Assembly: GCA_016931295.1 (NCBI GenBank)
Contig: JAFGEZ010000021.1
Span: forward strand, 1-49,473
Direction of reading: 5' to 3'
From: Candidatus Krumholzibacteriota bacterium
GTDB taxonomy: Bacteria; Krumholzibacteriota; Krumholzibacteriia; Krumholzibacteriales; Krumholzibacteriaceae
Length of the DNA stretch: 49,473 nucleotides
A model generated the notes under the pieces. It was not told where the DNA came from. It searched no databases and saw only the letters and a program-made list of their open reading frames with translations. Of the stretch, positions 57 through 16,700 are shown one piece after another. The translations under genes and the position numbers were made by a program. Every line of letters begins with the position of its first letter. The first letter of the stretch is position 1.

Positions 57-2183
57 TCAGGTGTCTAGCAAACCAGGGGAAGTCCAGTCCGAGTTACGAT
101 TCGCAATGGCAAGATCGCTATCACCGTCACCATCTAGATCATCGCTTGAGACCGAGTAAGGCACGTCGCACGCGCTATAGTGGGAAAAAAAAGTGAATGT
201 ACCATCTCCAACACCTAATAGAACCGAGATATTGTCAGAAGTCCAGTTAGCTGTCACTATATCCAGATTTCCGTCATTGTCCAGATAGCTACAATTAAGC
301 GAGATAGGTTTTGTTCCAACATTATAATTTATTGCGGGGTTGAATGTACCATTTCCGTTTCCTCGCAGAACAGAGACATTGTCAGAATCCATGTTAGCCA
401 CTACAAGATCTACGTTTCCATCTTTGTCCAAATCGGCGCTAATCAGAGATCTCGGATTGGCGCCGGCTCCCAGGAAGTATGCCGCCAAGAAAGTACCATC
501 ACCGTTGCCAATGAATATCGACACATTGTTCGATCCCGAATTTGCGACTGCGAGGTCCATATCCCCATCATTATTGAAATCATCGCTGACTATCGAGTTG
601 GGGATATCCCCCGAAATGAGCAACCTGGAAATAAAAAATGTTCCATCTCCATTTCCTGATAGGATTGTAACCCTGTCGTTCTGGCAAGCTACTGCCAGGT
701 CTTCTTTCCCATCGCTGTTGAAGTCTCCGTTTGCGATAGAGATCGGAGCGGCCCACACGCTGAAATTAGTCGCGGCCGAGAATGTTCCGTCACCGTATCC
801 CAAAAGAATAGAAACTTGATCGGCAACATCATTCGCAGTTACAAGATCCTTGTCCCCGTCATTATTGAGATCCACACTGATGAGTGCGACCGGCGAAGTG
901 CCTATGCTAAAAGTCGTGATTTCGGAAAAGGTACCATCGCCATTTCCAAGCCTCACTCCAACACTATTAGAAAAATAGCTATTGGTCACAAGATCCTGGA
1001 TTCCGTCATTATTGAGATCGTCGAGGACTATAGCCCATGGCATATTTCCCGCTTCTAGCAATCTGGCGGAAATGAATGTGCCATCGCCCTGATTCATGAG
1101 AAATGAAACTTCATCTTCATCGGCGACTATAATGTCCATATCTCCATCATTCTCCAGATCATAGCTGGTGACCGAACCGGGATTGTTTCCAACTACATAA
1201 TCTTCCTTCTCACCAAATGTGCCATCACCGATACCCAAAAGAATCGAGATGTTGTAAGACAAGGCGTTACTTACCGCAAGATCCTGATTTCCGTCACCGT
1301 CAAAATCCTCACTAATAATCGAATTCGGGGTGTTGCCAACGATATATTCTACGGCTGATCCGAATGTTCCGTCTCCGTTTCCTAAAAGAACAGAGATGTT
1401 GTCGGAAGAACCATTTGATATCGAAAGATCCTGATCTCCGTCGCCATCGAAGTCGCTGCTCGCTATCGACCATGCTTGATATCCTGTAGCGTAGCTGCCC
1501 TCCGAGGCAAAAGTGCCATCTCCGTTGTTCAATAGTATAGAAGCGGATCCGCTATAACCGTTTGCCACGGAGAGATCGTTATCTCCATCTCCATCTAAGT
1601 CACTTATCGCCACTGAATAGCAAAGATCCCCGATTAAATAGTTTACCGCGCTTTCAAAAGTCCCGTCACCATTGCCCAACAGAACCGAAATGTTGTCTGA
1701 ATAATCGTTTGCCACTACAAGGTCTTTATCGCCGTCTCCATCGAGATCATCACTATTTATTGCCCTGGGACTTTGACCCACGGCATAGTTTCCTGCAGAG
1801 GAAAAAGTCCCTCCTCCATCGTTTAATAGTATTGTGACGTTTTCCGACTCGTGATTGGCCACTGCGAGATCCTGATACCCATTACCGTTCAAATCCCTTG
1901 CGATTATCGATATTGGATTATCTCCTACGCTGTAATGGAATGGCATCGAATAGTATCCATCCTCTTCCCCGATAAGAATAGAAACGGTTCCCGCGTCTTC
2001 AGAAACAATACCGAAGTTTGCCACCGCAAGATCCGCAATCCCGTCCCCATTGAAATCCTCGATCGCGACTGATGCTGGCTTATTCCCAGTGATTATCGAT
2101 GTCGCGCAATTGAAAAGTTGAGGTATTGCCGATGTTGTGACCGGCATAATTAATATCATTAAAACAATAAAGCATCTGCTCAT
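57..2183 (-). CDS. Secreted FG-GAP / VCBS-type repeat protein. It carries about 12 repeats of the form GNGDGTF...DFDGDGDxDLAVAN.
   Basis: 708-aa ORF. The N-terminus MSRCFIVLMILIMPVTTSA looks like a signal peptide. The Ca-binding-like motif DxDGDGxxDLxVAN recurs about every 47 aa. GC content is visibly lower than in the rest of the window. Confidence 0.7.
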   Translation of the reverse strand: MSRCFIVLMILIMPVTTSAIPQLFNCATSIITGNKPASVAIEDFNGDGIADLAVANFGIVSEDAGTVSILIGEEDGYYSMPFHYSVGDNPISIIARDLNGNGYQDLAVANHESENVTILLNDGGGTFSSAGNYAVGQSPRAINSDDLDGDGDKDLVVANDYSDNISVLLGNGDGTFESAVNYLIGDLCYSVAISDLDGDGDNDLSVANGYSGSASILLNNGDGTFASEGSYATGYQAWSIASSDFDGDGDQDLSISNGSSDNISVLLGNGDGTFGSAVEYIVGNTPNSIISEDFDGDGNQDLAVSNALSYNISILLGIGDGTFGEKEDYVVGNNPGSVTSYDLENDGDMDIIVADEDEVSFLMNQGDGTFISARLLEAGNMPWAIVLDDLNNDGIQDLVTNSYFSNSVGVRLGNGDGTFSEITTFSIGTSPVALISVDLNNDGDKDLVTANDVADQVSILLGYGDGTFSAATNFSVWAAPISIANGDFNSDGKEDLAVACQNDRVTILSGNGDGTFFISRLLISGDIPNSIVSDDFNNDGDMDLAVANSGSNNVSIFIGNGDGTFLAAYFLGAGANPRSLISADLDKDGNVDLVVANMDSDNVSVLRGNGNGTFNPAINYNVGTKPISLNCSYLDNDGNLDIVTANWTSDNISVLLGVGDGTFTFFSHYSACDVPYSVSSDDLDGDGDSDLAIANRNSDWTSPGLLDT

Positions 2184-2459: not shown

Positions 2460-3686
2460 ATGCTGAAGACACCGGCGAGCATAAAGCCTCATATCGTCCT
2501 GCTCGGGCGAACCAACGTCGGCAAATCGACGCTGATGAACGCCATCGCGCGGCAGCCGCTGGCGCTCACCTCGGATGTGCCCGGCACGACGACCGATCCG
2601 GTCCGCAAGTCCTACGAGCTTCTCCCTTTCGGCCCCGTCGTCTTCGTCGACACGGGCGGCCTCGACGACCCGAGCGTCCTCGGCGACCTGCGGGTGTCCC
2701 TCACCAAACGGGAGCTCCAGAAGGCCGACTTCGTGATCCTCGTCGTCCAGGCCGGCCTTTGGGGAGAGCCGGAGGAGCAGGCCCTCGCCACCCTCGAGGA
2801 AACGAACACCGGCCACCTCGTCGTCGTCAACAAGACCGACCTCGAGGCCGACTGGAAAGCCCCTCGGGAGGCGATCTACGTCTCGTCGACCGCCGACGAG
2901 GGGATCGAGGAGCTCCGCCTCGCCCTCATCGATCGTCTCGAGAAGACGGTGAAGCGCACGCCATCGGTCCTCGGCGACCTCATCGACATCGGCGATGCGG
3001 TCGTCCTCGTCTGCCCGATCGACACCGGCGCGCCGAAGGGGCGGTTGATCCTCCCCCAGGTGATGGCGATCCGCGACGTCCTGGACAACGACGCCGTCGC
3101 CGTCGTCATCAAGGAGGACCGCATCGCCGAAACGATCGCCGGCCTCGAGACCCCGCCGAGACTCCTCGTCTGCGACTCGCAGGTGATCGAGCTCGTCGCG
3201 CGGGAGACGCCCCCGCACGTGGCGGTGACAACCTTCTCGATCCTCTTCGCCCGCATGAAGGCCGATCTCGAGACCTTCGTGCGCGGGCTCTTCGCCATCG
3301 AGGAGATCCAGGACGGCGACAGGGTGCTCATCGCCGAGGCCTGCACGCACCACCCCCTCGAGGACGACATCGGCACGATCAAGATCCCGCGCTGGATGCG
3401 CGCCTACACCGGCAAAAAGATCGAATTCGTCAAGTCCTGCGGCAAGGACTACCCCGGGGACCTCGAGCAGTTCAGGATGATCGTCCACTGCGGGGGCTGC
3501 ATGCTCACAGCCCGCCACGTCGAGGTCCGCGTCGAGGAAGCCACGAAGCGCGGCGTGCCGATCACGAACTACGGCCTCGCCATCTCGTACCTCACCGGCG
3601 TGCTCGAACGCGCCCTCGACCCCTTCCCCGAGCTCCGGAGGCTCGTCCATGAACACCGCGCCGCTGCGCGTCGCGATCGTCGATGA
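2460..3686 (+). CDS. hydF: [FeFe]-hydrogenase maturation GTPase HydF.
   Basis: The G1 P-loop is GRTNVGKST, and DTGG and NKTD motifs follow. The C-terminal Fe-S motif is CTHHPLEDD...HCGGC (CxH...HCxxC). The ORF finder starts at TTG 2451; the ATG at 2460 is the more likely start. Confidence 0.85.
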   Translation: MLKTPASIKPHIVLLGRTNVGKSTLMNAIARQPLALTSDVPGTTTDPVRKSYELLPFGPVVFVDTGGLDDPSVLGDLRVSLTKRELQKADFVILVVQAGLWGEPEEQALATLEETNTGHLVVVNKTDLEADWKAPREAIYVSSTADEGIEELRLALIDRLEKTVKRTPSVLGDLIDIGDAVVLVCPIDTGAPKGRLILPQVMAIRDVLDNDAVAVVIKEDRIAETIAGLETPPRLLVCDSQVIELVARETPPHVAVTTFSILFARMKADLETFVRGLFAIEEIQDGDRVLIAEACTHHPLEDDIGTIKIPRWMRAYTGKKIEFVKSCGKDYPGDLEQFRMIVHCGGCMLTARHVEVRVEEATKRGVPITNYGLAISYLTGVLERALDPFPELRRLVHEHRAAARRDRR

Positions 3687-5010
3687 CAACGCCGAGTTCC
3701 GCGGCGTCATGGTCAAGGCGATGCGGAAACAGGGCTTCGCCGTCGAGGAATACGACGCCGGCGAGCCCTTCGTCGAGGGCTTCGCGCCGGGGCGTCTCGA
3801 TCTCATCCTCGTCGACCTCGTGATGCCGGGGATCGACGGGATCGAGGTCATCCGGCGCGTCAAGAAGAACGACCCCACCGTCGTCGCCATCGTCGTCTCC
3901 GCCCACGGCTCGGCCGAGACGATCGTCGAGGCGATCAAGGAGGGGGCCTTCGACTTCCTCACGAAGCCCTTCCGGCTCGACGAGCTGCGCGTCCTCCTCG
4001 AGAAGGCCCTGCGGCAGGTCGAGCGCAACCGGGAGCTCGCCTCGATCCGCGGCGACCTCTCCCGCGACCGCTTCTGCGGCATGATCGGCCGCTCCGCGGC
4101 GATGCGCCGCGTCTTCGAGCTGACCGACCGGATCGCCCGCCGCGACGTGACCGTCCTCGTCACCGGCGCCTCGGGCACGGGGAAGGAGCTCCTCGCCCGT
4201 GCGATCCACAACCTCTCCCCGCGGCGCACCGGCCCGTTCATGGCCGTCAACTGCGGCGCGATCCCCGACACCCTCATCGATGCCGAGCTCTTCGGCCACG
4301 AGAAGGGCTCCTTCACCGGGGCGAACGCCTCCCGCGAGGGGATCATCCGGGCGGCCGACGGCGGCACCCTCTTCCTCGACGAGATCGGCGACCTGCCCCT
4401 GCCCACCCAGCTCCGGCTGCTCCGCTTCCTCCAGGAGAAGGAGATCCGCCCGGTCGGCTCCGACACGACGCACACCGTCGACGTCCGCGTCGTCTCGGCC
4501 ACCAACCGCGACCTCGAGGACATGGTCCGCCGCGAGCGCTTCCGCGACGACCTCTTCTACCGCCTCAGCGTCGTGCCGGTCCAGGTCCCCACGCTCGCCG
4601 CGCGCCGCGACGACATCCCGCTCCTCGTCACCTACTTCGTTGAGAAGGCGGGGAAGAAGTACCGGATCGCGCCGCCGCGGATCGAGGGGGCCGCGATGGA
4701 TCAGCTCATCGTCTACGACTGGCCCGGCAACGTCCGCGAGCTGGAGAACGTGATGGAGCGGCTCGTCATCCTCGCCACGGGCGGCATCATCCGCGCCCGC
4801 GACCTCCCGCGCCAGATCGCCTCGCACGAGGCGACCCTCGCGGGGATCGACCTGCCCGCCGGCCTCACCCTCGACGAGCTCGAGCGGCGCTACATCGAAC
4901 GGACGATCGAGGAGGCCGGCGGCAACCGCACGCGCGCCGCCGAGATCCTCGGCATCGACCGCCGGACGATCCAGCGCAAGCTCCGCGCCTGGGACGACGA
5001 CGAGGCATGA
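3649..5010 (+). CDS. Sigma-54-dependent response regulator of the NtrC family, with receiver, AAA+ sigma-54 interaction and Fis-type HTH domains.
   Basis: The receiver begins VAIVDDN...D. Walker A is GASGTGKE, and the sigma-54-contact loop GHEKGSFTGA is present. The C-terminus AAEILGIDRRTIQRKL is an HTH. A GGAGG RBS lies 8 nt upstream. The gene overlaps the hydF 3' end by 38 nt. Confidence 0.85.
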   Translation: MNTAPLRVAIVDDNAEFRGVMVKAMRKQGFAVEEYDAGEPFVEGFAPGRLDLILVDLVMPGIDGIEVIRRVKKNDPTVVAIVVSAHGSAETIVEAIKEGAFDFLTKPFRLDELRVLLEKALRQVERNRELASIRGDLSRDRFCGMIGRSAAMRRVFELTDRIARRDVTVLVTGASGTGKELLARAIHNLSPRRTGPFMAVNCGAIPDTLIDAELFGHEKGSFTGANASREGIIRAADGGTLFLDEIGDLPLPTQLRLLRFLQEKEIRPVGSDTTHTVDVRVVSATNRDLEDMVRRERFRDDLFYRLSVVPVQVPTLAARRDDIPLLVTYFVEKAGKKYRIAPPRIEGAAMDQLIVYDWPGNVRELENVMERLVILATGGIIRARDLPRQIASHEATLAGIDLPAGLTLDELERRYIERTIEEAGGNRTRAAEILGIDRRTIQRKLRAWDDDEA

Positions 5011-5128
5011 CGCCCCGCCGCCGTCCGCTGCCGCGCCCCCGCGACGACCGAACTCACAGCCTGACAACAGGATAACCCACTCCCGCGCGCCTGGCCTCAT
5101 ATCTCGTTATATTGCAAGGCGTTACGAT

Positions 5129-5144
5129 TGGCACCATCGTTGCA
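5129..5144 (+). promoter_or_regulatory. Sigma-54 (RpoN) -24/-12 promoter, TGGCAC-catcg-TTGCA.
   Basis: This is an exact match to the TGGCAC-N5-TTGCA consensus, with GG-N10-GC spacing. It lies 166 nt upstream of the NuoE-like gene start at 5310 and just downstream of the NtrC-type activator gene. Confidence 0.6.
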
Positions 5145-5309
5145 GTCTCCCCATGCGGAGGCTGAACAGGATGACGCGAAACAACGACAACAGAATACAG
5201 GGATTCGAGTTACAGGGTACGGGGGCCGGCGGGGGACTGCGACGGAATGTCCCGGACCGGCCGACGGGGTGCGGCAATCCGCCGCGCCGTCACGGGAAGT
5301 GAGGTGACC

Positions 5310-5795
5310 ATGCATCCGGAAGCCGCAAGCGCACGAGAAATCACCGGGATCATCGGCGAGGTCCCCCGCGGGCGCCACGATCTCGTCATCCCGACGCTCC
5401 AGCGCGTCCAGGCGACGCTCGGGTACATCCCCGAGCAGGTCGTCTTCGACCTCGCCGAGCAGGTCGGCACGACGCCGGCCGCCGTCTTCGGCGTCGCCAC
5501 CTTCTACAACCAGTTCCGCCTGACCGCCCCCGGCGAGCACACGATCCGCGTCTGCCGCGGGACGGCCTGCCACGTGAAGGGCAGCGCCAGGATACTCGAC
5601 ACGATCTGCCGCGCGCTCGGCGTCGCATCGGGCGAGACGACACGCGACGGGCTCTTCACCGTCGAGGAGGTCGCCTGCCTCGGCTCCTGCTCGATCGCGC
5701 CGGCCGTGATGATCGACGACCGCTTCTACGGGCACGTGACGGCCGAGGGGCTCGTCGAGCTCGCCGAGGCGATCTCGCGCGGAGGTGACGCATGA
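5310..5795 (+). CDS. NuoE-like thioredoxin-fold [2Fe-2S] subunit of the bifurcating [FeFe] hydrogenase (HydC/HndA type).
   Basis: The Cys motif is CRGTACHVKG...CLGSCSIAP. The RBS GAGGTGA precedes the ATG at 5310 (the ORF-finder frame starts at 5247). The stop overlaps the next gene's start as ATGA. Confidence 0.8.
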   Translation: MHPEAASAREITGIIGEVPRGRHDLVIPTLQRVQATLGYIPEQVVFDLAEQVGTTPAAVFGVATFYNQFRLTAPGEHTIRVCRGTACHVKGSARILDTICRALGVASGETTRDGLFTVEEVACLGSCSIAPAVMIDDRFYGHVTAEGLVELAEAISRGGDA

Positions 5796-7738
5796 CCGGC
5801 GAACTGTACAGGCGCTGGGAGGAAGCGGGCCGGCCGGGGCATTTCCTCGCGTGGGCCTTCGGGAACAACGACGACGCGGCGGAGACGATCCGCCTGCTCA
5901 GGCGCGAGACGATCGAGCGCCCGCAGGTCTTCGTGGGCACGGGCACCTGCGGCCTCGCCTCCGGCGCCGCCGACGTCCTCGCCGCCTTCAGCGAGGCGGC
6001 CGCCGCCGGCACCATCGACGCCGACATCCACGAGGCCGGCTGCCTCGGCTTCTGCCGCATGGAGCCCCTCGTCGAGATCCAGCTTCCCGGCGGACCGGGC
6101 GTCCTCTACGGCGAGGTCACCCCGGCCGAGGTCCCGGCCATCGCCAACACGGTCCTCGCCGGCGGCCGGCACGACGCGGCCCGGGCCCTCCTCCGCTTCG
6201 ACGACGGCCCGCCGATCGACGGCATCGATGCCGTCGCCGACCACCCCTTCTTCAGGCCCCAGCGCCGCATCGTGCTCTCGCGCGTCGGGCGCTTCGATCC
6301 GGACGACCTCTCCGCCGCCATCGCGCGGGAGGATTACCGCGGCCTGCTCGAGGCGCTGACCGCGAAGACGCCCGGGGAGACGGTCGCCACGATCGAGGCT
6401 TCCGGGCTCCGCGGCCGCGGCGGGGGCGGCTTCCCCACGGGCACGAAGTGGAAGCTCGCCGCCCGCGAGCAGTCCGACCGCAAGTACGTCGTCATGAACG
6501 CCGACGAGGGCGATCCCGGCGCGTTCATGGACCGCTCGGTCCTCGAGAGCGATCCGCACGCGGCGATCGAGGGGATGGCCCTCTGCGGCTACGCGATCGG
6601 CGCCGCCGAGGGGTACATCTACTGCCGCGCCGAGTACCCGCTCGCCATCCGGCGGCTCGAGACCGCCATCGCCGACGCGCGCGAGGCGGGGATCCTCGGC
6701 GAGAACATCCTCGGCACCGGCTTCTCCTTCGACATCCGGATCAAGATGGGCGCCGGCGCCTTCGTCTGCGGCGAGGAGACGGCGCTCCTCGCCTCGATCG
6801 AGGGCAAGCGCGGCATGCCCCGCCCCCGCCCCCCCTATCCGGCCCAATCGGGGCTGTTCGGCCGTCCGACCGTCATCAACAACGTCGAATCCATGGCCAA
6901 CATCGGCTGGATCGTGTCGAACGGCCCCGAGGCCTTCCGCGCCGTCGGGACGCCGGGCTCGCCCGGCACGAAGGTCTTCGCCCTCTCGGGCAAGCTCGAG
7001 CGGAGCGGCCTCGCCGAGGTTCCGATGGGGATCTCGATCGGCGAGATCGTCGAGGGGATCGGCGGCGGGAGCGAGACGGGGCTTGCCCTCAAGGCCGTGC
7101 AGATCGGCGGCCCGTCGGGGGCCTGCGTCCCCGTCGACCTCTGGCACACCGCGGTCGACTACGACGAGCTCAAGCGGATCGGCGCCATGATGGGCTCGGG
7201 CGGACTCGTCGTGATGGACGAGGGGACCTGCATGGTCGACGTGGCGCGCTTCTTCCTCGACTTCACCACGAAGGAATCCTGCGGCAAGTGCACCCCCTGC
7301 CGCGAGGGGACGCGGCGGATGCGCCACATCCTCGAGCAGCTCACCACCCGGTGGGGCGATCCCGACGAGGGTGGCGCGCTCGCCCGCTTCTCCGGGCTCA
7401 TCGAGCTCGAGCGCGTCGCCCGCGACGTGCAGAAGACGGCCCTCTGCGGGCTCGGGCAGACGGCGCCCAACCCGGTGCTCTCCACCCTGAAGTTCTTCCG
7501 CGGCGAGTACGAGGCGCACCTCTACGACCGCCGCTGCCCCGCGGGGGTCTGCACGGCCCTCAGGGAGTACGCGATCGACCCTGAGGCCTGCGTCGGCTGC
7601 GGCCGCTGCAAGAAGCTCTGCCCGGCGAACGCGATCGTCGGGTCGCCGAAGAAGACGCACTACATCGTCGAGGAGAAATGCATCGGCTGCGGCTCCTGCG
7701 CGGACACCTGCACGTTCGATGCGGTGACGGTCTCGTAG
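5792..7738 (+). CDS. NuoF-like NAD(P)H/FMN-binding subunit (HydB/HndC type). It has an N-terminal 2Fe-2S thioredoxin-like domain and a C-terminal 2x[4Fe-4S] ferredoxin.
   Basis: GRGGGGFPTGTKW is the FMN/NADH site. CGKCTPCREG is an N3-type 4Fe-4S motif. The C-terminus has CVGCGRCKKLCP and CIGCGSCADTC. The N-terminal motif is CGLASGA...CLGFCRMEP. Confidence 0.85.
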   Translation: MTGELYRRWEEAGRPGHFLAWAFGNNDDAAETIRLLRRETIERPQVFVGTGTCGLASGAADVLAAFSEAAAAGTIDADIHEAGCLGFCRMEPLVEIQLPGGPGVLYGEVTPAEVPAIANTVLAGGRHDAARALLRFDDGPPIDGIDAVADHPFFRPQRRIVLSRVGRFDPDDLSAAIAREDYRGLLEALTAKTPGETVATIEASGLRGRGGGGFPTGTKWKLAAREQSDRKYVVMNADEGDPGAFMDRSVLESDPHAAIEGMALCGYAIGAAEGYIYCRAEYPLAIRRLETAIADAREAGILGENILGTGFSFDIRIKMGAGAFVCGEETALLASIEGKRGMPRPRPPYPAQSGLFGRPTVINNVESMANIGWIVSNGPEAFRAVGTPGSPGTKVFALSGKLERSGLAEVPMGISIGEIVEGIGGGSETGLALKAVQIGGPSGACVPVDLWHTAVDYDELKRIGAMMGSGGLVVMDEGTCMVDVARFFLDFTTKESCGKCTPCREGTRRMRHILEQLTTRWGDPDEGGALARFSGLIELERVARDVQKTALCGLGQTAPNPVLSTLKFFRGEYEAHLYDRRCPAGVCTALREYAIDPEACVGCGRCKKLCPANAIVGSPKKTHYIVEEKCIGCGSCADTCTFDAVTVS

Positions 7739-7754
7739 AAAGGCGGAGGACGCG

Positions 7755-9464
7755 ATGTCAGTGAATCTCACCGTGAACGGAACGAAGACGAGGGCGGCTC
7801 GGGGCGAGACGATCCTCTCGGTCGCCAGGCGCCTCGGGATCGAGATCCCCACCCTCTGCCACATCGACGGCCTCGAGCCGAACGGCGCCTGCCGGATCTG
7901 CGTCGTCGACGTCGGCGGCCGGCTCGTCCCCTCCTGCTCCACACCGGTCGCCGAGGGGATGGAGGTGACGACGAACTCCACGGCCGTGCTCCGGGCCAGG
8001 AAGACGATCGTCGAGCTCCTCCTCGCCGCCCACCCGAGCGAGTGCACGACCTGCTTCAAGTCGGACAGCTGCGAGCTGGCGCGCCTCGCCCGCGAGTACT
8101 CGATCGAGCGGATCAAGGTGCCGAGGGGATACGCGCGGCGCCTCCCCGACTCCTCCAACGCGGCGATCGTCCGCGAGCCGGAGAAATGCATCCTCTGCGG
8201 CAAGTGCGTGCGCGTCTGCAACGAGATCCAGGGGGTCGGCGCGATCGACTTCGCCCGGCGCGGGGCCGACACGACGGTCCAGCCGGTCTTCGGGCGCGCC
8301 CTCGGGCTGACCCAGTGCACCTTCTGCGGCCAGTGCATCAACGCCTGCCCCACCGGGGCCCTCCACGAGGCCTCGCACATCGACCGGGTCCTCGCCGCCC
8401 TCGCCGACCCCGCCGTCACGACCGTCGTCCAGGTGGCGCCGGCGATCCGCGTGTCGATCGGCGAGCTCTTCGACATGGCCCCGGGCTCGGTCGTCACCGG
8501 CAAGCTCGCCGCCGCGCTCCGCCGCGTCGGGTTCGACCGGGTCGTCGACACCGATTTCGCCGCCGACCTCACGATCATGGAGGAGGGCTCGGAGTTCGTG
8601 AAGCGCCTCCGCGAGGGCGGCCCCCTGCCCCTCCTCACGAGCTGCTCGCCGGGATGGGTGAAGTTCATGGAGCACAACTGGCCCGAGCTCCTGCCGAACC
8701 TCTCCACGTGCAAGTCGCCGCACGAGATGCTGGGCGCCGTCGTGAAGGGCTGCTGGGCGCCCGAGGCGGGCATCGATCCCGCGACGGTCTTCGTCGTCTC
8801 CGTGATGCCCTGCACGGCGAAGAAGTACGAGGCGGGCCGGCCAGAGCTGGGCGACGGGGGGATCGGCGACGTCGACGCCGTCCTCACGACGCGCGAGGCG
8901 GGACGCCTCCTCCGGCTCTTCGGCATCGATCTCGCCGCGATGCCCGAGGAGGATTTCGACCACCCCCTCGGCGCCTCGACCGGCGCGGCGGCGATCTTCG
9001 GCCGCTCGGGTGGCGTCCTCGAGGCGGCGCTGCGCACCGTCCACCAGCTGTTGACCGGCGAGGAACTCGCCTCCCTCGATTTCGAGACCGGCGGCCCCGG
9101 GATCCGCGAGACGACGGTCGACGTCGCCGGCTCGCGCGTGAGGGTGGCGACGGCCTCGGGGCTGGCCGCCGCGCGCGCGCTCGTCGAACGGGTCCGCGCC
9201 GGGGAGACCTTCCACATGATCGAGATCATGGCCTGCCCGGGCGGGTGCATCAACGGCGGCGGGCAGCCCTACGCCGACGCCGAGACGGCCCGGCTGCGCA
9301 GGAGCGCCCTCAACGTGGTCGACCGGAGCATGCCGGTCAGGCGCAGCCACCTGAATCCCGAGATCGCGGCGCTCTACCGGAACGTCCTCGGCAGGCCGCT
9401 CTCGGAGAAGAGCCACGAGCTGCTGCACACGACCTACACGGAGCGAACGCTCTTCAACGCGTGA
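7755..9464 (+). CDS. hydA: [FeFe]-hydrogenase catalytic subunit HydA, M3 architecture. In this gene context it belongs to group A3 (bifurcating).
   Basis: The N-terminal 2Fe-2S motif is CRIC. A His-ligated 4Fe-4S site reads HPSECTTCFKSDSC. Two ferredoxin motifs follow, CILCGKCVRVC and CTFCGQCINACP. The H-cluster motifs are L2 MPCTAKKYE and L3 EIMACPGGCINGGGQP. L1 reads TSCSPGW, which is atypical. The RBS is GGAGG. Confidence 0.9.
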   Translation: MSVNLTVNGTKTRAARGETILSVARRLGIEIPTLCHIDGLEPNGACRICVVDVGGRLVPSCSTPVAEGMEVTTNSTAVLRARKTIVELLLAAHPSECTTCFKSDSCELARLAREYSIERIKVPRGYARRLPDSSNAAIVREPEKCILCGKCVRVCNEIQGVGAIDFARRGADTTVQPVFGRALGLTQCTFCGQCINACPTGALHEASHIDRVLAALADPAVTTVVQVAPAIRVSIGELFDMAPGSVVTGKLAAALRRVGFDRVVDTDFAADLTIMEEGSEFVKRLREGGPLPLLTSCSPGWVKFMEHNWPELLPNLSTCKSPHEMLGAVVKGCWAPEAGIDPATVFVVSVMPCTAKKYEAGRPELGDGGIGDVDAVLTTREAGRLLRLFGIDLAAMPEEDFDHPLGASTGAAAIFGRSGGVLEAALRTVHQLLTGEELASLDFETGGPGIRETTVDVAGSRVRVATASGLAAARALVERVRAGETFHMIEIMACPGGCINGGGQPYADAETARLRRSALNVVDRSMPVRRSHLNPEIAALYRNVLGRPLSEKSHELLHTTYTERTLFNA

Positions 9465-9477
9465 GGAGGCCGGGGCG

Positions 9478-11496
9478 ATGAAAGGCGTCGTACACACGAT
9501 CGGCGAGAGATGCAAGCGGTGCTTCACCTGCGTCAGGGAGTGCCCGGCGCACGCCGTGCGCATCTCCGGCGGCCAGGCGGTGGTCCTCGAGGACCGTTGC
9601 CTGTCCTGCGGCCACTGCGTGAGCGTCTGCAGCCAGGGAGCCAAATCGGTCGAGGACGGCACCGCCCCGACGGCGGCCATGCTCGCCGACCCCGAGACGA
9701 AAACGATCGCGATCCTCGCCCCCTCCTTCCCCTCCTACGTCGATTGCGATCCCCCCGACCGTCTCGTCGGCGCGCTCCGCGCGCTCGGATTCGACGAGGT
9801 GATGGAGGTCGCCTTCGGAGCCGACATGGTCGCGGCCGAGTACGGGCGGATCTACGAGTCGTCCACGGGATCGCAGATCACCACCCCCTGCCCCTCGATC
9901 TACTTCTACGTGTGCAAGTACATGCCCGATCTCATCCCGCGGCTCTCGCCGGTCGTCTCGCCGATGATCGCCATGGCGCGCCTCATCAAGTGGCGCCTCG
10001 ATCCGGAGGCCAGGGTCGTCTTCATCGGCCCCTGCGTCGCCAAGAAGTCGGAGGCGGAGGATCCCTCGGTGGCGGGCGTCGTCGACGCGGTGCTCACCTT
10101 CCGCGAGCTGCGCGGCATGTTCGCCGACCGGGGCATCGACCCGGTGGCCTGCGAGCCGGCCGCGTTCGACGGCCCGGCGGCGTGGCGCGGGCGCCTCTTC
10201 CCCGTCTCGGGGGGGCTTCTCGTCTCCGCGGGGGTCGCCCGCGACCTCGAGGAGAACGAGGTGATCGTGGCCGAGGGGAAGAACCGGGCGATCCCGCTCC
10301 TCAAGAGCCTCGGCGAGGGCGTGATCGAACCGCGCTTCCTCGACATCCTCTTCTGCGAGGGCTGCGTGAACGGCCCCTTCTGCCGCGACCGCGAGGATAT
10401 CTTCAGGAACCGCGACAGCGTGCTGCGGTACTACCGCGAACACCGCGAACGCTTCGACGAGGACGCGTGGCGGCGGAACATGGCCGCGACCGCCGGCATC
10501 GACCTCGGCCGCTCTTTCGTGGCCGACACGCGCCGGCTGCCGATGCCCTCCGAGGAGCAGATCAACGAGCAGCTGCGGCGCATGGGCAAGACGGGACCGA
10601 AGGACGAGCTGAACTGCGGGGCCTGCGGCTACCGTTCCTGCCGCGAGCACGCCATCGACGTCCTCCGCGGGCTCGCCGAATCGGAGATGTGCCTCCCCTA
10701 CACGGTCGACCAGCTCGAGTCGACCCTCGGGCAGCTCGAGGAGAGCAACCGGCGGTTCCGCGACGCGCAGCAGCAGCTCATCCAGAACGAGAAGATGGCC
10801 GCGATGGGCCAGCTCGCCGCGGGCGTCGCGCACGAGGTGAACAACCCGCTCGGCACGGTCCTGCTCTACTCGCACATGATCCTCGAATCCCTCGAGGGGG
10901 AGGATCCCAACCGCGAGGACCTCTCGATCATCGTCCGCGAGACGGAGCGCTGCCGGCGGATCGTGGCCGACCTCCTCGATTTCGCCAGGCAGAACAAGCT
11001 CGTCCTCTCCAACGTCGACCTCGAGAGCTTCCTCCGGGATACGATCGAGCCGTCAGTGCGCGCGCCGGAGAACGCCGCCGTCCGGTTCGATTTCGAGACC
11101 GCCCCGATCCCGGAGATCGCCGTCGACGCCGACCAGGTCCGCCAGGTCGTCCTCAACGTCGTCCAGAACGCCCTCGAGGCGATGGAACGGCGCGGCCGGA
11201 TCGTCGTGCGGCTCTACCGCTCCCCCGACGGCGACCGGGCGGTCATCGAGATCGTGGACGACGGGCCGGGGATCCCCGAGAACGCGCTTTCGAGGATCTT
11301 CACCCCGTTCTTCACGACGAAACCGATCGGCAAGGGCACCGGACTCGGCCTCGCGATCGCCTACGGGATCGTGAAGCTCCACCGCGGCGACATCGCCGCG
11401 CGGAACGGAAACGCCGGGGGCGCGACGCTCCGGGTGGAGATCCCCTACGGTCTCGGCGAGACGGCGGCCGGGGAGGACACCTTCAATGACGGCTAG
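9478..11496 (+). CDS. Sensory (HydS-like, group C) [FeFe]-hydrogenase H-cluster domain fused to a histidine kinase (HisKA + HATPase_c).
   Basis: The N-terminus has 2x[4Fe-4S] ([23 protein letters not shown]). The H-domain has degenerate L1 TTPCPSIY, L2 GPCVAKKSE and L3 FCEGCVNG. An extra Cys cluster CGACGYRSC follows, then a coiled coil. The HisKA H-box is [12 protein letters not shown]. The ATPase N/G boxes are NALEAM, DDGPGI and [10 protein letters not shown]. The RBS is GAGGAGG. Confidence 0.8.
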
Positions 11497-11614
11497 AACG
11501 ACGGAGAACGCAGCACGACGCACTGCTGAACCGATGGGGACCCGCGCGGCGACTCGGGCCGGATGCCGCGCCGGGTTCCCCCCCACAACGGACCCGGCCC
11601 GAAGGAGACCTGTC

Positions 11615-12016
11615 ATGGCTAAGGTTCTGCTCGTCGACGACGATCCCGATTTCCGGGAAATGGGCACCGAAGTCCTCTCGGCGGCCGGCCACGAGGTCGT
11701 GACCGCGGCGTCCGGCAAGGAAGGATTCGAGGCGGCGCTCCGGGAGACGCCCGACGCGGCCGTCATCGACCTGATGATGGAGACGGTCGACGCCGGCGCC
11801 GTGCTCTGCCGCAAGCTGAAGAACGACGACCGGACGAAGTCGATCCCCCTGCTGATGCTCACCGCCGTCACCGAGGCCACCGGCTTCAAGTTCGGCATCG
11901 ACACCGAGGGGGAACGGGACTGGATCCTCGCCGACGAGTACGTCGACAAGCCGATCCCCTTCCCGGAACTCGTCAAGCGCGTCGGCAACCTCCTGGGCAA
12001 TGCAGCGCGCAGCTGA
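11615..12016 (+). CDS. Stand-alone CheY-like response-regulator receiver domain protein.
   Basis: The sequence reads KVLLVDDDPDF...D...LMLTA...K. The ATG at 11615 follows the RBS GAAGGAG. The ORF-finder frame starts earlier in Arg-rich sequence that is unlikely to be coding. Confidence 0.7.
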   Translation: MAKVLLVDDDPDFREMGTEVLSAAGHEVVTAASGKEGFEAALRETPDAAVIDLMMETVDAGAVLCRKLKNDDRTKSIPLLMLTAVTEATGFKFGIDTEGERDWILADEYVDKPIPFPELVKRVGNLLGNAARS

Positions 12017-13520
12017 GCATACGAGGGCCGTCCGCATCCTCGTCGTCGACGACGAATGGGGGATGCGGACCGGCGCGAAGCGGATCCTCGAGCGGGAAGG
12101 CTACGAGGTGGAGACGGCCGGGGACGGCGCCGGCGCCATCGCGCTGGCCACGCCGGCGCCGTTCGACGTCTGTCTCGTCGATCTCAAGCTCCCCGACGTC
12201 GACGGCCTCACCCTGCTCAAGGAGTTCCACGGGATCGACGCGAGCACGGTCTGCATCGTGATCACGGCCTACGCGAGCCTCGAGACGGCGATCGAGGCGA
12301 CGAGGCGGGGCGCGTGGGACTTCCTGCCGAAGCCCTTCACCCCGCAGGCGCTGCGGGCCGTCGTGGCCCGCGCCGCCGAGCGGCGTCTCCTCCTCGAGGA
12401 GGCCGACCGCCTGCGCCGCGAGCGCGAGGAGCGGCTGCTCGAGCTGGCCGGCGAGCGCAGCCGGACGAGCACGATCCTCTCCAACCTCACGACGGGCGTC
12501 GTCGTCGTCAACGAGGCGGGCGAGCTCGCCCTCTTCAACACGGCCGCCCTGAGCCTGCTCGCCGAGCCCGCGCTCGAGACGGGCGCGGGCTTCCTCGCCC
12601 AGCTGCCGGCCGGGGAGCTGCGCGAGGCGATCGCGCGGCTCCTCGACGGAACGATCGAGGAGGCGATCCACACGACGATCGAGGCCCCCGGCGTCGCCGA
12701 GGGGCAGACGCTCTCGGTGACCGCCGCCCCGGTCCCGGGGCCGAGGGGGGGCATCTCGGGGCGGACGATCAGCATCAGGGACGTCACCGACCGGGCCGAG
12801 CTCGACCGGGCGAAGTCGAACTTCGTCCGGATCGTCTCCCACGAGGTCAAGGCGCCCGTCGGCGCGGTCATCGGGTTCATCGACATGATCCTCGAGGGCT
12901 ACGCCGCCGACCCGGAAAAGCAGCGCGAGTACCTCGCGCGGGCACGCGGCCGCCTCGAGGGGCTCGTGACGATGGTCAAGGACCTTCTGGCGATGACCCG
13001 CCAGGAGACCCGGGGGGCCGGGCGGAGCTTCGAGCCGGTCGACCTGGTCGGACTCGTCCGGGAGACGGTCGCCTCGCTCGAGCCGGACTGGCGGGCGCGA
13101 TCGATCGCCGTCGAGGTGGCCGGCGACGGGGCGCCCCCCGTCGTCGGGGACGAGCCGGGGCTCGGGCAGGTGTTCACCAATCTCCTCTCGAACGCCATCA
13201 AGTACAACCGCCCCGGCGGCCGCGTCACGGTCTCGATGCGCGAATCGGGGGCCGGGGTGGAGACGACCGTGACCGACACGGGCGTCGGCATGGATCGGGA
13301 ATCGCTTGCGCGCATCTGGGAACCCTTTTATCGTATCAAGTCGGCCGAGACGAAGGACGTCCCCGGAACGGGGCTCGGACTCTCCATCGTGCGTGCGATC
13401 GTCGAGACGCACAAGGGCCGCATCGAAGTCACATCGTCACCCGGCGAAGGCACCACGTTCACCCTGTGGTTGCCGCGCGCGCCCGGCGGGGCGGACGGGG
13501 GACCGGAGAACGCCGCGTAA
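12000..13520 (+). CDS. Hybrid two-component protein with an N-terminal receiver, a PAS-like linker and a HisKA/HATPase_c histidine kinase.
   Basis: The receiver is ILVVDDEWGMR...DVCLVDLKLPDVDG...KPF. The H-box is RIVSHEVKAP. The N/G boxes are NLLSNAIKYN, DTGVGM and GTGLGLSIV. Confidence 0.75.
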   Translation: MQRAAEHTRAVRILVVDDEWGMRTGAKRILEREGYEVETAGDGAGAIALATPAPFDVCLVDLKLPDVDGLTLLKEFHGIDASTVCIVITAYASLETAIEATRRGAWDFLPKPFTPQALRAVVARAAERRLLLEEADRLRREREERLLELAGERSRTSTILSNLTTGVVVVNEAGELALFNTAALSLLAEPALETGAGFLAQLPAGELREAIARLLDGTIEEAIHTTIEAPGVAEGQTLSVTAAPVPGPRGGISGRTISIRDVTDRAELDRAKSNFVRIVSHEVKAPVGAVIGFIDMILEGYAADPEKQREYLARARGRLEGLVTMVKDLLAMTRQETRGAGRSFEPVDLVGLVRETVASLEPDWRARSIAVEVAGDGAPPVVGDEPGLGQVFTNLLSNAIKYNRPGGRVTVSMRESGAGVETTVTDTGVGMDRESLARIWEPFYRIKSAETKDVPGTGLGLSIVRAIVETHKGRIEVTSSPGEGTTFTLWLPRAPGGADGGPENAA

Positions 13521-13545
13521 AGCGGCGTGGGGAGGTGGATCGCCG

Positions 13546-14949
13546 ATGACCGGGTTCATCGACGTCGAACGGATCGAGTCGCTGCTCGCCGAGGGACGGC
13601 GTGCCGACCGGCAGACGGTCGAGGACGTGATCGAGCGCGCGGCCGAGAAGGAGGGGCTGACTCCCACGGAGACGGCAGTCCTGCTCGGCTGCGAGGACAC
13701 CGAGCTCTGGGAAGAGATCTACGCCCTCGCCCGGAAGATCAAGGAAGACATCTACGGGCGGCGGATCGTGCTCTTCGCCCCCCTCTACGTCTCGAACCTC
13801 TGCCAGAACGACTGCCTGTACTGCGCCTTCCGGCGGAGCAACGAGGAGTGCGCGCGCATCGCCCTCGGCCCCGAGGAGGTCGCCCGCGAGGTGCGCGCCC
13901 TCGAGAGCGTCGGGCACAAGCGGCTGCTCATGGTCTACGGCGAGCATCCCGCCTACGGCGTCGACTACATGGTCCAGACGATCCGCGCGGCCTACGAGAC
14001 CCGCACCCCGGACCGCCACGGGGAGATCCGCCGGATCAACGTGAACGCCGCCCCCCTGAGCGTCGAGGACTACCGGCGGCTCAAGGAGGCCGAGATCGGC
14101 ACCTTCCAGGTCTTCCAGGAGACCTACCACCCGGGCCGATACCGCGAGGTGCACCCGCCCAACACCCGCAAGGGGGATTTCGAGTGGCGGCTCTACGCGC
14201 TCCACCGCGCGCAGGAGGCCGGACTCGACGACGTCGCCGTCGGCGCCCTCTTCGGTCTCTACGACTGGCGCTTCGAGGTGATGGGCCTTCTCATGCACGC
14301 GCTCGACATGGAGCGCGTCTTCGGCGTCGGGCCGCACACGATCTCCTTCCCGCGGCTCGAGCCGGCGATCAACACGCCCTTCACCGGCTACTCGCGCTGG
14401 AAGACCTCCGACGAGGAGTTCAAGCGGCTCGTGGCCGTCTTGCGGCTCATGGTCCCCTACACCGGCCTGATCCTCACCGCGCGCGAGCGCCCCGAGCTCC
14501 GGCGCGAGTACATCCGCCTCGGCGTCTCGCAGATCGACGGCGGCACGCGGATCGACATCGGCGGCTACGGCAAGGGCCCCGCGACGGTCGAGACGGAGAA
14601 GGAGAAGCAGCAGTTCGAGATCTTCGACAACCGCTCGCTCGACGAGGTCGTGCTGGAGCTGGCGAAGACGGGCTACGTCCCCTCCTTCTGCACGGCATGC
14701 TACCGTTCGGCCCGCACCGGCGAGACCTTCATGGAATTCGCCAAGCACGGCGACATCAAGAACATGTGCCTGCCGAACGCGATTTTGACCTTCAAGGAGT
14801 ATCTCGAGGACTTCGCGTCGCCCGCAACGCGCCTCGTGGGCACGAAGCTCATCGAGGAACTGCTCAGGGGCACGGAGAACGGTCCGCGCTCGGCGCTGGA
14901 GAAGAAGATCGGCCGCATCGAGCGCGGCGAGCGCGACGTGTACTGCTAG
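13546..14949 (+). CDS. hydG: [FeFe]-hydrogenase maturase HydG (radical-SAM tyrosine lyase).
   Basis: The radical-SAM CxxxCxxC motif is CQNDCLYC. The C-terminal auxiliary-cluster motif is CTACYRS...NMC. The RBS GGGGAGG precedes the ATG at 13546. Confidence 0.85.
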   Translation: MTGFIDVERIESLLAEGRRADRQTVEDVIERAAEKEGLTPTETAVLLGCEDTELWEEIYALARKIKEDIYGRRIVLFAPLYVSNLCQNDCLYCAFRRSNEECARIALGPEEVAREVRALESVGHKRLLMVYGEHPAYGVDYMVQTIRAAYETRTPDRHGEIRRINVNAAPLSVEDYRRLKEAEIGTFQVFQETYHPGRYREVHPPNTRKGDFEWRLYALHRAQEAGLDDVAVGALFGLYDWRFEVMGLLMHALDMERVFGVGPHTISFPRLEPAINTPFTGYSRWKTSDEEFKRLVAVLRLMVPYTGLILTARERPELRREYIRLGVSQIDGGTRIDIGGYGKGPATVETEKEKQQFEIFDNRSLDEVVLELAKTGYVPSFCTACYRSARTGETFMEFAKHGDIKNMCLPNAILTFKEYLEDFASPATRLVGTKLIEELLRGTENGPRSALEKKIGRIERGERDVYC

Positions 14950-15932
14950 CGGCGCCTGATCCCCCCGCCGCGCCCGCGGCCGACCGAGAGCCCCAGCTCG
15001 TCGAGGGTCGCCGCGGTGCATTCGCGGCACGACTCGGTCGAGCCGCAGGCGGCCCGCTCGTAGATCTCGTACGCGGCCGCCGCCTCGCGCGGCGTGTAGT
15101 CGATCATGATGACGTTCGCCCCCGATCGCATCGCCCGCGCGCGGGCCTGCCGCCCGTAGACGCACATCGCCGTCGTCGAGGGCATGTGCGCCCCGGGTGC
15201 GACGAGCCGCCCGAGGGCGAGGACGCGCAGGACACGGTCGATGGGGGGCGGATCGAGATCGCCGAGGGGGGTTCCCGCCGCGGGGATCAGCGGCGAGACC
15301 GAGATCATGTCGTAGGGCGTTCGCGCCCAGTCGAGGATGTCGGCGGCGAGATGCTCCGCCGTCTGCCCGGGAAGCCCCACGATGTTCCCGCTCCCCGTCT
15401 CGTACCCGAGGGCGAGGAGGTCGTCGATGCAGCGGCGGCGGTTCTCCCAGCTCATCCCGGGGTGGAGCGTGCCGTAGAGCTCGCGGTCGGCCGCCTCGAG
15501 CTTGAGGAGATACCGGTCGGCGCCGGCCTCGCGCCACGCCCGGTAGACCTCCCGCGGCCATTCGCCCACCGAGAGGGTCACGGCGACGTCGAACCGCTCC
15601 TTGATCGCCGCGACCGTCTGTCCGAGGCCCTCGACGTCGAGACCGGGATGCTCCCCCGACTGCAGGACGATCGTGCGGAAGCCGTCCGCCGCGGCGCAAC
15701 CGGCCCGTTCGATCACCGTCTCCCAGGAAAGGTCGTAGCGGCTGACGAGATCGTTGTCGCAGCGCAGCCCGCAGTAGGCGCAGCGGCCGACGCAGCGGTT
15801 GGAGAACTCGACGATCGCGCGGAGGTGGACGACGTCGCCGTGGACGCGGCGGCGCTCGCGGTCGGCGCGGGCGCAGAGTCCGGCGGTCGCCTCAGCGTCG
15901 TCCAGGAGCCTGATGATCTCGCGCTCGTCCAT
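14946..15932 (-). CDS. hydE: [FeFe]-hydrogenase maturase HydE (radical SAM, BioB-like).
   Basis: The radical-SAM motif is CVGRCAYC, followed by a biotin-synthase-like TIM barrel of 328 aa. The gene converges on hydG with overlapping stop codons. Confidence 0.85.
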   Translation of the reverse strand: MDEREIIRLLDDAEATAGLCARADRERRRVHGDVVHLRAIVEFSNRCVGRCAYCGLRCDNDLVSRYDLSWETVIERAGCAAADGFRTIVLQSGEHPGLDVEGLGQTVAAIKERFDVAVTLSVGEWPREVYRAWREAGADRYLLKLEAADRELYGTLHPGMSWENRRRCIDDLLALGYETGSGNIVGLPGQTAEHLAADILDWARTPYDMISVSPLIPAAGTPLGDLDPPPIDRVLRVLALGRLVAPGAHMPSTTAMCVYGRQARARAMRSGANVIMIDYTPREAAAAYEIYERAACGSTESCRECTAATLDELGLSVGRGRGGGIRRR

Positions 15933-16046
15933 GGGGGGAATATAGCAGAATCGGCCCGCGCGGGCATGCCCCGTCTCGCGTTCCCCCCGCGCGGAATCAG
16001 CTCACGCGCCCCTCGCGGACGCCTTTCGCGGCCATCGCACGTCTTG

Positions 16047-16700
16047 TCAGCGCTCGATCGTCGCCTGCAGGTCGCCTATCGCGCCGAGCGAGCGACCCGT
16101 CGCCCAGAAATGCGGGTTTCCGGCGCAGAACGTGAAGGTGCCGAGCGCCGCCGGATCGACCCGTCCGTCCTTGCCCAGGATCTCCCGGTCCGCCCGGACG
16201 TCGAGTATCTCGCCGATGAACATCACGTGCGAGCCGGCCTCGACGGTCCTGACGACCCTGCATTCGATGACGAGCGGAAACTCGGCGATGACGGGCGCGT
16301 CGACCGAGTCCCCGCGGACGGCGGTGAGCCCGGTCGCCGCGAGCTTGTTTACGTCGCGCCCCGAGACCGTTCCGAAGAAGGCCGCGGCGGCGGCGTGGCG
16401 TTCGGCGGGCACGTTCACCGTGAAGGCGCCCCGCCGCACGATGTTGCCGTAGCTGTATCGCGACTCGCGGATCGAGACGGTCACGCAGGGGGGATCGGAA
16501 GCGCAGACGCCGGCCCACGAGGCCGTCATCATGTTGGCCCTGCCCGCGTCATCGTACGAGCCGATGATCCAGACGGGGGCGGGCGGCGCCAGGGGCCCGG
16601 CGCCGAGGGAGACCTTCTCCGCCCGGATAGCACCCGGCAGAAGAGTCGACGCCGCGAAGGCGGCTGCGAAAAGGGCTGTCAGGCATGGGCGCATGCGCAT
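16047..16700 (-). CDS. Flavin-reductase-like (FMN-binding split-barrel) protein with a predicted N-terminal signal peptide.
   Basis: The core VWIIGSYDDAGRANMMTASWAGVCASDPPCVTVSIRESRYSYGNIVRRGAFTVNVP matches the flavin reductase domain. The N-terminus is MRMRPCLTALFAAAFAASTLLPGAIRA. The real start is internal to a longer Arg-rich ORF listed at 16047..18116. Confidence 0.6.
   Translation of the reverse strand: MRMRPCLTALFAAAFAASTLLPGAIRAEKVSLGAGPLAPPAPVWIIGSYDDAGRANMMTASWAGVCASDPPCVTVSIRESRYSYGNIVRRGAFTVNVPAERHAAAAAFFGTVSGRDVNKLAATGLTAVRGDSVDAPVIAEFPLVIECRVVRTVEAGSHVMFIGEILDVRADREILGKDGRVDPAALGTFTFCAGNPHFWATGRSLGAIGDLQATIER

Follow-up and report, generated by a model that had tools for sequence, protein, structure and literature searches.

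The contig JAFGEZ010000021.1, from a Candidatus Krumholzibacteriota metagenome-assembled genome (assembly GCA_016931295.1), carries an [FeFe]-hydrogenase island in which the gene directly after hydA encodes, judged by its sequence, a genuine H-cluster domain protein of the HydS type fused to a complete histidine kinase. The window analysed here is the whole of this one contig, 49,473 nucleotides (nt), and it is the part of the genome that the analysis covered. The same cluster holds a gene for an NtrC-type activator and an exact sigma-54 promoter motif ahead of the hydrogenase genes. We see about an even chance that these elements form one package, in which H2 or an H2-linked redox state at a slow H-cluster would set the balance of kinase and phosphatase activity and act through the NtrC-type protein on the promoter at 5129-5144. 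The operon would then be autoregulated, since the sensor gene lies within it. The regulatory features concerned are the following.

3649 to 5010, plus strand: ntrC-type activator gene, encoding a sigma-54 enhancer-binding response regulator (Pfam REC, Sigma54_activat, AAA_lid_14, HTH_8)
5129 to 5144, plus strand: predicted sigma-54 promoter (TGGCAC-CATCG-TTGCA, read directly)
9478 to 11496, plus strand: sensor hydrogenase-histidine kinase, 672 amino acids (aa) (Pfam two Fer4, Fe_hyd_lg_C, FeS PF04060, HisKA, HATPase_c)
11615 to 12016, plus strand: stand-alone receiver, 133 aa (Pfam Response_reg; the open reading frame runs from 11486 and the start was revised)
12000 to 13520, plus strand: receiver-gated kinase (Pfam REC, PAS_4, HisKA, HATPase_c; D61 and H271 present)

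All the sequence features listed in an earlier note on this DNA, which had been made from the sequence without database searches, were found where it had placed them, and Pfam confirmed its gene order. Naming here follows Pfam domains and NCBIfam equivalog cut-offs. In the NCBI protein records the activator is MBN1885054, a sigma-54-dependent Fis family regulator, and the catalytic subunit is MBN1885057 (HydA), while the sensor, MBN1885058, is named only 'histidine kinase'.

The sensor runs from two [4Fe-4S] domains through the H-domain, a Cx2Cx4Cx16C cluster and a long helix to the dimerisation and histidine phosphotransfer (DHp) domain, with H452, and the catalytic domain. Pfam places Fe_hyd_lg_C at residues 75-300 (E 1e-48), FeS PF04060 at 378-407, HisKA at 443-505 and HATPase_c at 550-657. 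Conservation was read from an alignment of 121 sequences, consisting of the window protein and its best 120 relatives with the window's own HydA alongside, and from a second alignment of 28 sequences for the pocket residues, the N-terminal cluster Cys and the kinase boxes. The four H-cluster Cys, C138 (L1), C186 (L2) and C293 and C296 (L3), are invariant in 121/121 sequences and align with the Cys of the window HydA, so the protein is not only a ferredoxin-kinase, a possibility that the earlier note had raised. The pocket residues A81-P82-S83 and K189 (the Lys of PCxAKK) are likewise invariant in the smaller alignment.

The H-domain lacks the proton-relay Cys, as the earlier note had claimed, and the L1 motif it had quoted is present in the translation, as is CGACGYRSC. 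Pro stands at the position of CpI Cys299 in the window protein and in 112/121 family sequences. The Met353 position is Gly, L3 is a CxxC motif one residue shorter than the CPGGC of the window HydA, and the region that holds the group A proton-pathway residues E279/E282/R286 is four residues shorter than in HydA and unconserved. Because the proton relay is absent, a slow, sensor-like reaction with H2 is to be expected, and we infer that the protein would bind H2 at low turnover and act as a sensor. Its motif features make it a putative member of sensory group C (HydS-like).

The transmitter half is just as well preserved. The invariant kinase boxes comprise H452 in AHEVNNP, N560 and N564, D594-G596-G598 (G1), FTPFFTTK (F) and G620-G624 (G2). 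In the stretch from H-domain to kinase, C380, C383, C388 and C405 form a Cx2Cx4Cx16C motif that is invariant in the 121 sequences (CGACGYRSC, then C405). The direct fusion to HisKA/HATPase_c, also reported earlier, is upheld by Pfam and by the AlphaFold model: no PAS domain follows the C-terminal cluster by Pfam, and the model has no PAS fold there, so that the PAS domain expected of an M2f protein is not seen. The model is helical over residues 305-405, and one helix (406-471) then starts right after C405 and carries His452; mean pLDDT (predicted local distance difference test) is 77, with values of ~90 in the H-domain and only 45-60 in this helix. Among solved structures there is none of a HydS-type protein, and the matches of the sensor H-domain are all group A enzymes, with residues 10-262 covered. 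The transmitter domain is closest to AtoS and ZraS, its best solved match being ZraS (9jfj).

This architecture is widespread. The sensor search gave 7768 significant matches among 8000 scored candidates, and the best 120 of the 7768 all share the Fer4, Fe_hyd_lg_C, FeS, HisKA, HATPase_c order at ~670 aa. The family reaches Zixibacteria, Armatimonadota, Planctomycetota, Chloroflexota, Spirochaetota, Bacteroidota, Ignavibacteria, Myxococcota, Acidobacteriota and others. A metagenome scan with the single sensor protein yielded one useful relative (locus L083), the remainder being nearly all kinase-domain-only matches. Gene neighbourhoods were counted in 80 related loci with a full-length sensor kinase, with smaller denominators where the flank was insufficient. 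The core conserved across these loci is hydCBA with the sensor kinase and a small receiver, and of the 67 loci with enough flank 53 have hydA directly upstream of the sensor.

This common position, and the name BfuT under which the protein appears in the literature (PMC11406978), would also suit a catalytic or structural fourth hydrogenase subunit whose kinase is vestigial. We consider that very improbable, given the loss of the proton-relay Cys, the four missing residues in the relay region and the invariance across phyla of both His452 and the catalytic boxes of the kinase. Another view is that the sensor reads the cellular redox state, as reduced ferredoxin or NADH, through its N-terminal clusters or by docking to HydABC, with the H-cluster as a mere redox cofactor. 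The two N-terminal [4Fe-4S] motifs (C12/C15/C18/C22 and C41/C44/C47/C51) are indeed invariant in the 28-sequence alignment, and in T. mathranii HydS (TamHydS) electrons pass mainly through the N-terminal clusters, and H2 does not reduce the C-terminal one. The sensor gene also sits in the HydABC operon, and the equivalent product has been called the 'T' subunit of the gene cluster (PMC11406978). Yet strict conservation extends over the whole H-cluster pocket, something a simple Fe-S redox sensor would not need, and three maturase genes are kept in the island; redox sensing of this kind therefore seems to us quite unlikely.

The other end of the proposed package is the promoter. The perfect sigma-54 motif claimed for 5129-5144 is exact: TGGCACCATCGTTGCA agrees with 11/11 specified bases of TGGCAC-N5-TTGCA, is intergenic and faces hydC, 102 nt ahead of the ATG at 5247 and 165 nt ahead of the ATG at 5310. 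The latter is probably the true hydC/nuoE start, to judge from homologues of 156-160 aa. Exact matches to TGGCAC-N5-TTGCW occur twice in the window against 0.00 expected from 100 shuffles of it, and both are intergenic and aimed at the downstream gene. The second match (TGGCAC-N5-TTGCA) lies at 44944-44959 on the plus strand, 117 nt before the ATG at 45076, and is likely a second sigma-54 promoter; the gene behind it (45076 to 46223) encodes an SPFH/Band-7 protein with double zinc ribbons. This second well-placed motif argues that the organism uses sigma-54. No rpoN was seen on this one contig; the enhancer-binding protein gene and the two exact motifs are indirect signs of it. By sequence and position, 5129-5144 has the marks of a real sigma-54 promoter. 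A search for a Rex operator in the window, allowing up to 3 mismatches, found none.

Could the motif at 5129 be a chance match, the operon being read from an unrecognised sigma-70-type promoter? In L163, the closest relative of the Zixibacteria type, there is neither an NtrC gene nor a sigma-54 motif but a sigma-70-like TTGACA/TATACT pair, and most related operons are without the motif. In the window, however, the interval from 5011 to 5246 showed no sigma-70-like site, the exact motif is not expected by chance, and it is intergenic, correctly oriented and beside the gene of a sigma-54 activator. Related motifs also occur in L082 and L083. On these grounds we give the chance explanation very little credence.

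The earlier note had made conservation of the motif in related genomes a condition, and the comparison gave a mixed picture, with a motif upstream of nuoE in L082, L083, L013 and L005 and none in about 40 other loci. The region upstream of nuoE was scanned in 46 related loci, with nuoE starts taken from tblastn matches, and the background for a 10/11 match is 0.0045 per 510 nt. Among relatives that retain the upstream region, L082 and L083 are the closest two; the 94% relative L081 is cut inside nuoF. L082 (sensor 62% identical, NtrC 60%) carries TGGCACAAAAGCTGCT 56 nt before the nuoE start, with GG-N10-GC and a 10/11 match, and L083 (sensor 56%, NtrC 55%) carries TGGCATAGCCCCTGCA ~110 nt before nuoE, with GG-N10-GC and a 9/11 match. 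The NtrC gene adjoins the nuoE promoter region in both, in divergent orientation in L082 and in the same orientation in L083. Two Ignavibacteria-type loci, L013 (exact, 11/11) and L005 (10/11), have the motif before nuoE and no activator gene nearby. L013 (Melioribacteraceae) also shows a strong palindrome at 5618-5656, AAGAAAGAATTT...AAATTCTTTCTT, ~40-75 nt upstream of its exact promoter, a candidate activator site although no activator gene lies within 10 kb. Two further loci, L022 from Clostridia and L055 from Dehalococcoidales, have a sensor-kinase gene that overlaps one of the NtrC type, and in L055 a 9/11 sigma-54-like motif comes next, ahead of a receiver-nuoE-nuoF cluster. The link between sensor and NtrC/sigma-54 is credible because it recurs independently often enough, and NtrC with sigma-54 would be an output that particular lineages have given to a sensor module conserved far more widely.

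The activator itself has the parts of a sigma-54-dependent response regulator: receiver D56, Walker A GASGTGK, GSFTGA at 220 (a variant of GAFTGA) and Walker B LFLDEIG. Among NCBIfam models the activator comes closest to ntrC, AtoC and ZraR, each time below cut-off, and since no equivalog cut-off is reached we give it no specific name among these. Its receiver and that of the second, receiver-gated kinase are 35% identical (E 8e-24), and each is 28-29% identical to the small stand-alone receiver. The alignment thus sets an NtrC-type class, made up of the activator and the hybrid kinase, apart from the small receiver, without singling out the acceptor of the sensor kinase. DLMME and a ~7-residue insertion mark the small receiver as one of a conserved subtype; it is closest to PhoB-type receivers, and the transmitter of the second kinase is closest to PnpS, PhoR and WalK. 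The partners of AtoS and ZraS are sigma-54 activators. These likenesses of transmitters and receivers favour a pairing in which the sensor kinase would address the NtrC-type receivers and the second kinase the small receiver. The complete circuit from H2 through a phosphorelay to sigma-54 that the earlier note proposed survives only in part: the H-domain kinase, the promoter and a nearby NtrC gene stand, while Pfam finds no histidine phosphotransfer (Hpt) domain in any island protein, and the system is therefore a branched two-component system, not a classical phosphorelay.

The neighbourhood counts lend themselves to a different pairing, in which the sensor signals mainly to the small receiver and, through or beside it, to the second kinase, with a non-transcriptional output, for example on HydABC or some other protein, and the NtrC-type protein is fed by the second or an unlinked kinase, its place beside the operon then pointing to another input. 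A small receiver directly adjoins the sensor kinase in 63/78 loci, whereas only 6/80 have an NtrC-type gene at 10 kb or less (L009, L014, L022, L055, L082, L083). The receiver is a distinct, well-conserved subtype, and its gene overlaps that of the second kinase by 17 nt. In many loci, from Ignavibacteria, Bacteroidota and others, a second nuoE-nuoF-hydA cluster has a similar small receiver (e.g. L004 13926-14309) directly upstream. The L055 gene at 17016-18017 encodes a fusion of a receiver with a HydA-N-terminal-like Fer2_4/Fer4 protein and sits downstream of the sensor kinase, NtrC, a receiver protein, nuoE and nuoF. Against this stand the AtoS/ZraS type of the sensor transmitter, the PhoB-like character of the small receiver set beside the NtrC type of the activator and hybrid receivers, and the direct pairing of sensor kinase with NtrC in L022 and L055. 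We hold an output mainly through the small receiver to be possible, if somewhat unlikely.

A branched output would join the two, with NtrC/sigma-54 transcription on one side and, on the other, the small receiver and second kinase directly controlling the bifurcating hydrogenase by phosphorylation. Such direct control would fit the recurrence of receivers beside nuoE-nuoF-hydA, once fused to a HydA-like protein; we think it a doubtful prospect. If true, two-component control acting directly on an electron-bifurcating hydrogenase complex would be without described precedent.

Control through the NtrC-type activator, the account we favour, would work as follows. The sensor would bind an H-cluster without a proton relay and react slowly with H2. 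The redox or conformational state of the H-domain and the C-terminal [4Fe-4S] cluster would be passed along the helix from C405 to His452, and this signal would set kinase against phosphatase activity. Phosphoryl groups would go to the NtrC-type activator and probably to the receiver of the second kinase. The activator would switch the promoter at 5129-5144, so that synthesis of the hydrogenase would track the H2 level, with the small receiver and second kinase as a side branch of non-transcriptional or modulating output. The invariant H-cluster and kinase residues, the exact motif, the NtrC neighbours in L082 and L083, the overlaps in L022 and L055, the likeness to AtoS/ZraS, the operon-like gene spacing and the three maturases in the island together make this plausible. 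Domains, motifs, gene order, promoter sequence and conservation across loci are observed, while we infer H2 as the signal, the pairing of kinase and NtrC, the action of NtrC at 5129 and the sign of regulation.

Several observations weigh against this account. The conserved neighbour of the sensor is the small receiver and not NtrC, and it is so even where the second kinase is absent, which speaks against the pairing of sensor with NtrC; the rarity of NtrC genes near the sensor also tells against the circuit as a general one. Some 40 other related operons have no sigma-54 motif upstream of nuoE. The L082 site is ambiguous (Rex, sigma-54 or both), because at 5764-5788 a Rex-like palindrome, TTGTGAAaaatGGCACAA, encloses the sigma-54-like -24 element, and the Rex-like box also fits. 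The activator-binding inverted repeat that had been suggested for 5011-5128 was looked for and none there was convincing, a search of 4700-5260 for inverted and direct repeats turned up nothing but GC-rich ones within the end of the ntrC coding sequence, and a k-mer and palindrome comparison of the upstream regions of the window, L082 and L083 found nothing in common. Sigma-54 promoters are silent without an active activator; as the sensor kinase gene lies downstream of the very promoter proposed as its target, the sensor needs a basal, internal or other source of expression. The TamHydS cluster that is not reduced by H2 argues against the C-terminal cluster as relay. Finally, signalling by group C/D [FeFe]-hydrogenases was described as untested as of 2026, with H2 sensing shown for none of them.

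The island as a whole spans 2460-15932. The earlier range of 3649-13520 did contain the genes described, and it fell short because hydF, hydG and hydE flank them. The remaining genes are as follows.

2460 to 3686, plus strand: hydF, H-cluster maturation GTPase (Pfam HydF_tetramer, HydF_dimer, MMR_HSR1; NCBIfam TIGR03918, 494.5 bits against a cut-off of 325.55)
5247 to 5795, plus strand: hydC, NuoE-like [2Fe-2S] subunit (Pfam 2Fe-2S_thioredx)
5792 to 7738, plus strand: hydB, NuoF-like FMN/NADH subunit with C-terminal 2x[4Fe-4S] (Pfam Complex1_51K, NADH_4Fe-4S, Fer4)
7755 to 9464, plus strand: hydA, catalytic [FeFe]-hydrogenase subunit of the HydABC type (Pfam Fer2_4, NADH-G_4Fe-4S_3, Fer4, Fe_hyd_lg_C, Fe_hyd_SSU)
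13546 to 14949, plus strand: hydG, radical-SAM maturase (Pfam Radical_SAM, BATS; NCBIfam TIGR03955, 491.3 bits against 312.15)
14946 to 15932, minus strand: hydE, radical-SAM maturase, convergent with hydG (Pfam Radical_SAM; NCBIfam TIGR03956, 261.2 bits against 254.6)

All three maturases, hydF, hydG and hydE, are thus in the island, each above its NCBIfam equivalog cut-off. The NuoE-like and NuoF-like subunits accompany a HydA that matches solved enzymes, its best solved relatives being T. kivui HydA1 (8a6t, E 7e-181) and A. woodii HydA1 (7q4v), and that reaches 785.7 bits against the NCBIfam NF040763 cut-off of 765; hydCBA is accordingly assigned, as a prediction, to the electron-bifurcating HydABC type (group A3). 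The L1 motif of this HydA is TSCSPGW, with Ser in place of the second Cys of CpI TSCCPGW, which we take to be the cluster ligand Cys300. In the alignment A. woodii HydA1 (7q4v) also has TSCSPGW and T. kivui has TSCCPSW.

From hydC to hydG the gene spacing is -17 to 118 nt, with 13 nt between hydA and the sensor, and no plus-strand terminator-like site was found in this stretch; the only two such sites, at 2428-2444, lie upstream of hydF. Spacing and the absence of terminators make hydC-hydG compatible with one operon behind the sigma-54 promoter, which would comprise hydC, hydB, hydA, the sensor kinase, the receiver, the receiver-PAS-kinase and hydG. For the receiver gene the likeliest start is 11615, which has GGAG 7 nt upstream and gives the 133 aa also called in L081. 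hydG starts 25 nt past the receiver-gated kinase, an arrangement shared with L081, and is probably the last gene of the operon. A receiver-PAS-kinase is found downstream of the sensor in 24/70 loci. The 3' end of hydF extends 38 nt into the start of ntrC, hydF is preceded by a weak sigma-70-like site at 2422-2449, and these two genes would form a separate upstream transcription unit. A 1127-aa open reading frame at 13527-16910 has no Pfam match and was set aside as a high-GC artefact, hydG and hydE being the real genes there.

GC content is ~70% across the contig, the first 2.4 kb excepted. Positions 1-2400 have 42-49% GC, with an abrupt step near 2400, and hold a 708-aa FG-GAP repeat protein (57-2183, minus strand); this block may be recently acquired DNA or an assembly chimera. 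Beyond the island, 16811-43040 encodes many peptidases (S9, M1, M16, C25, M50) and an OPT oligopeptide transporter, and this peptidase-rich remainder would be compatible with a peptide-fermenting, H2-evolving lifestyle.

Among known systems, the nearest are the kinase-linked group C hydrogenases. HydDB lists group C1 as 'histidine kinase-linked (putative)', and a 2024 study of Hydrogenedentota describes sub-type V bfuC-B-A-T clusters, in which bfuA is followed by the gene of 'BfuT', a group C3 sensor that carries a histidine-kinase domain; the reference for sub-type V is Caldithrix abyssi WP_006928132.1, a Caldithrix protein placed in C3 (PMC11406978). The window protein shares with these the missing proton-relay Cys, the kinase on the H-domain and a gene directly after the HydABC catalytic subunit, and the order hydC, hydB, hydA, sensor is that of C-B-A-T. 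In the Bacteroidales loci L037, L051, L054, L061 and L070 a second, divergent sensor-kinase-like gene (29-34% identity) lies upstream of nuoE in addition to the post-hydA copy, which resembles the two-bfuT arrangement of the 2024 paper (PMC11406978). What differs from the BfuT clusters is the NtrC-type activator and exact sigma-54 promoter in the same cluster, as in few of the 80 loci. The earlier note had thus overrated the novelty of the find: the fusion and its place after hydA are already catalogued and the family is very large, while for the local NtrC/sigma-54 association no description was found in the papers searched. Its remark that such circuits lack experimental work agrees with those papers, in which we found no biochemical test of a kinase-fused [FeFe] sensor, nor of its link to NtrC/sigma-54.

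The second comparison is with T. maritima HydS (TmHydS; group C, M2f) and TamHydS (group D, M2e), which define the HydS features: Cys299 is lost and a C-terminal Cx2Cx4Cx16C is present in both, and Met353 is Gly in TmHydS (PMC8163306). The window protein has these features, including the Gly shared with TmHydS, together with two N-terminal [4Fe-4S] clusters and a gene beside a bifurcating hydrogenase, as in both HydS proteins. TmHydS, in contrast, has a PAS domain after its C-terminal cluster and no kinase, and TamHydS has neither PAS nor kinase, whereas in the AlphaFold model of the window protein the cluster domain continues through one helix into the DHp domain. For the question of H2 sensing and signalling by group C/D [FeFe]-hydrogenases, a kinase-fused member such as this one is a convenient candidate, because its autophosphorylation, with H2 or without it, would be a direct readout of the signal. 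This cluster adds a candidate output at the DNA level, an NtrC-type activator with a textbook sigma-54 promoter. The practical value is not special to this contig, because the catalogued family includes cultivated hosts, e.g. Melioribacter and Caldithrix.

AtoS/AtoC and ZraS/ZraR have the most similar transmitter and regulator, although the scores are far below equivalog cut-offs and the input domains are unrelated. The likeness to HoxBC-HoxJ-HoxA of Cupriavidus necator, a [NiFe] regulatory hydrogenase system with sigma-54-dependent promoters (PMC10073562), is one of logic only: a slow hydrogenase sensor acts on a histidine kinase, an NtrC-family activator and sigma-54 hydrogenase promoters. 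The Hox sensor belongs to [NiFe] group 2b, with a cofactor and a protein family unrelated to those here, and it is a protein distinct from its kinase, HoxJ, which contains a PAS domain, so the resemblance is an analogy and not membership. Unphosphorylated HoxA is the active form (PMC10073562), and for this reason the sign of regulation cannot be assumed in the window. The [NiFe] HoxJ/HoxA system has been rebuilt in E. coli (PMC10073562), and the NtrC-type activator and sigma-54 promoter described here could likewise be rebuilt in that host.

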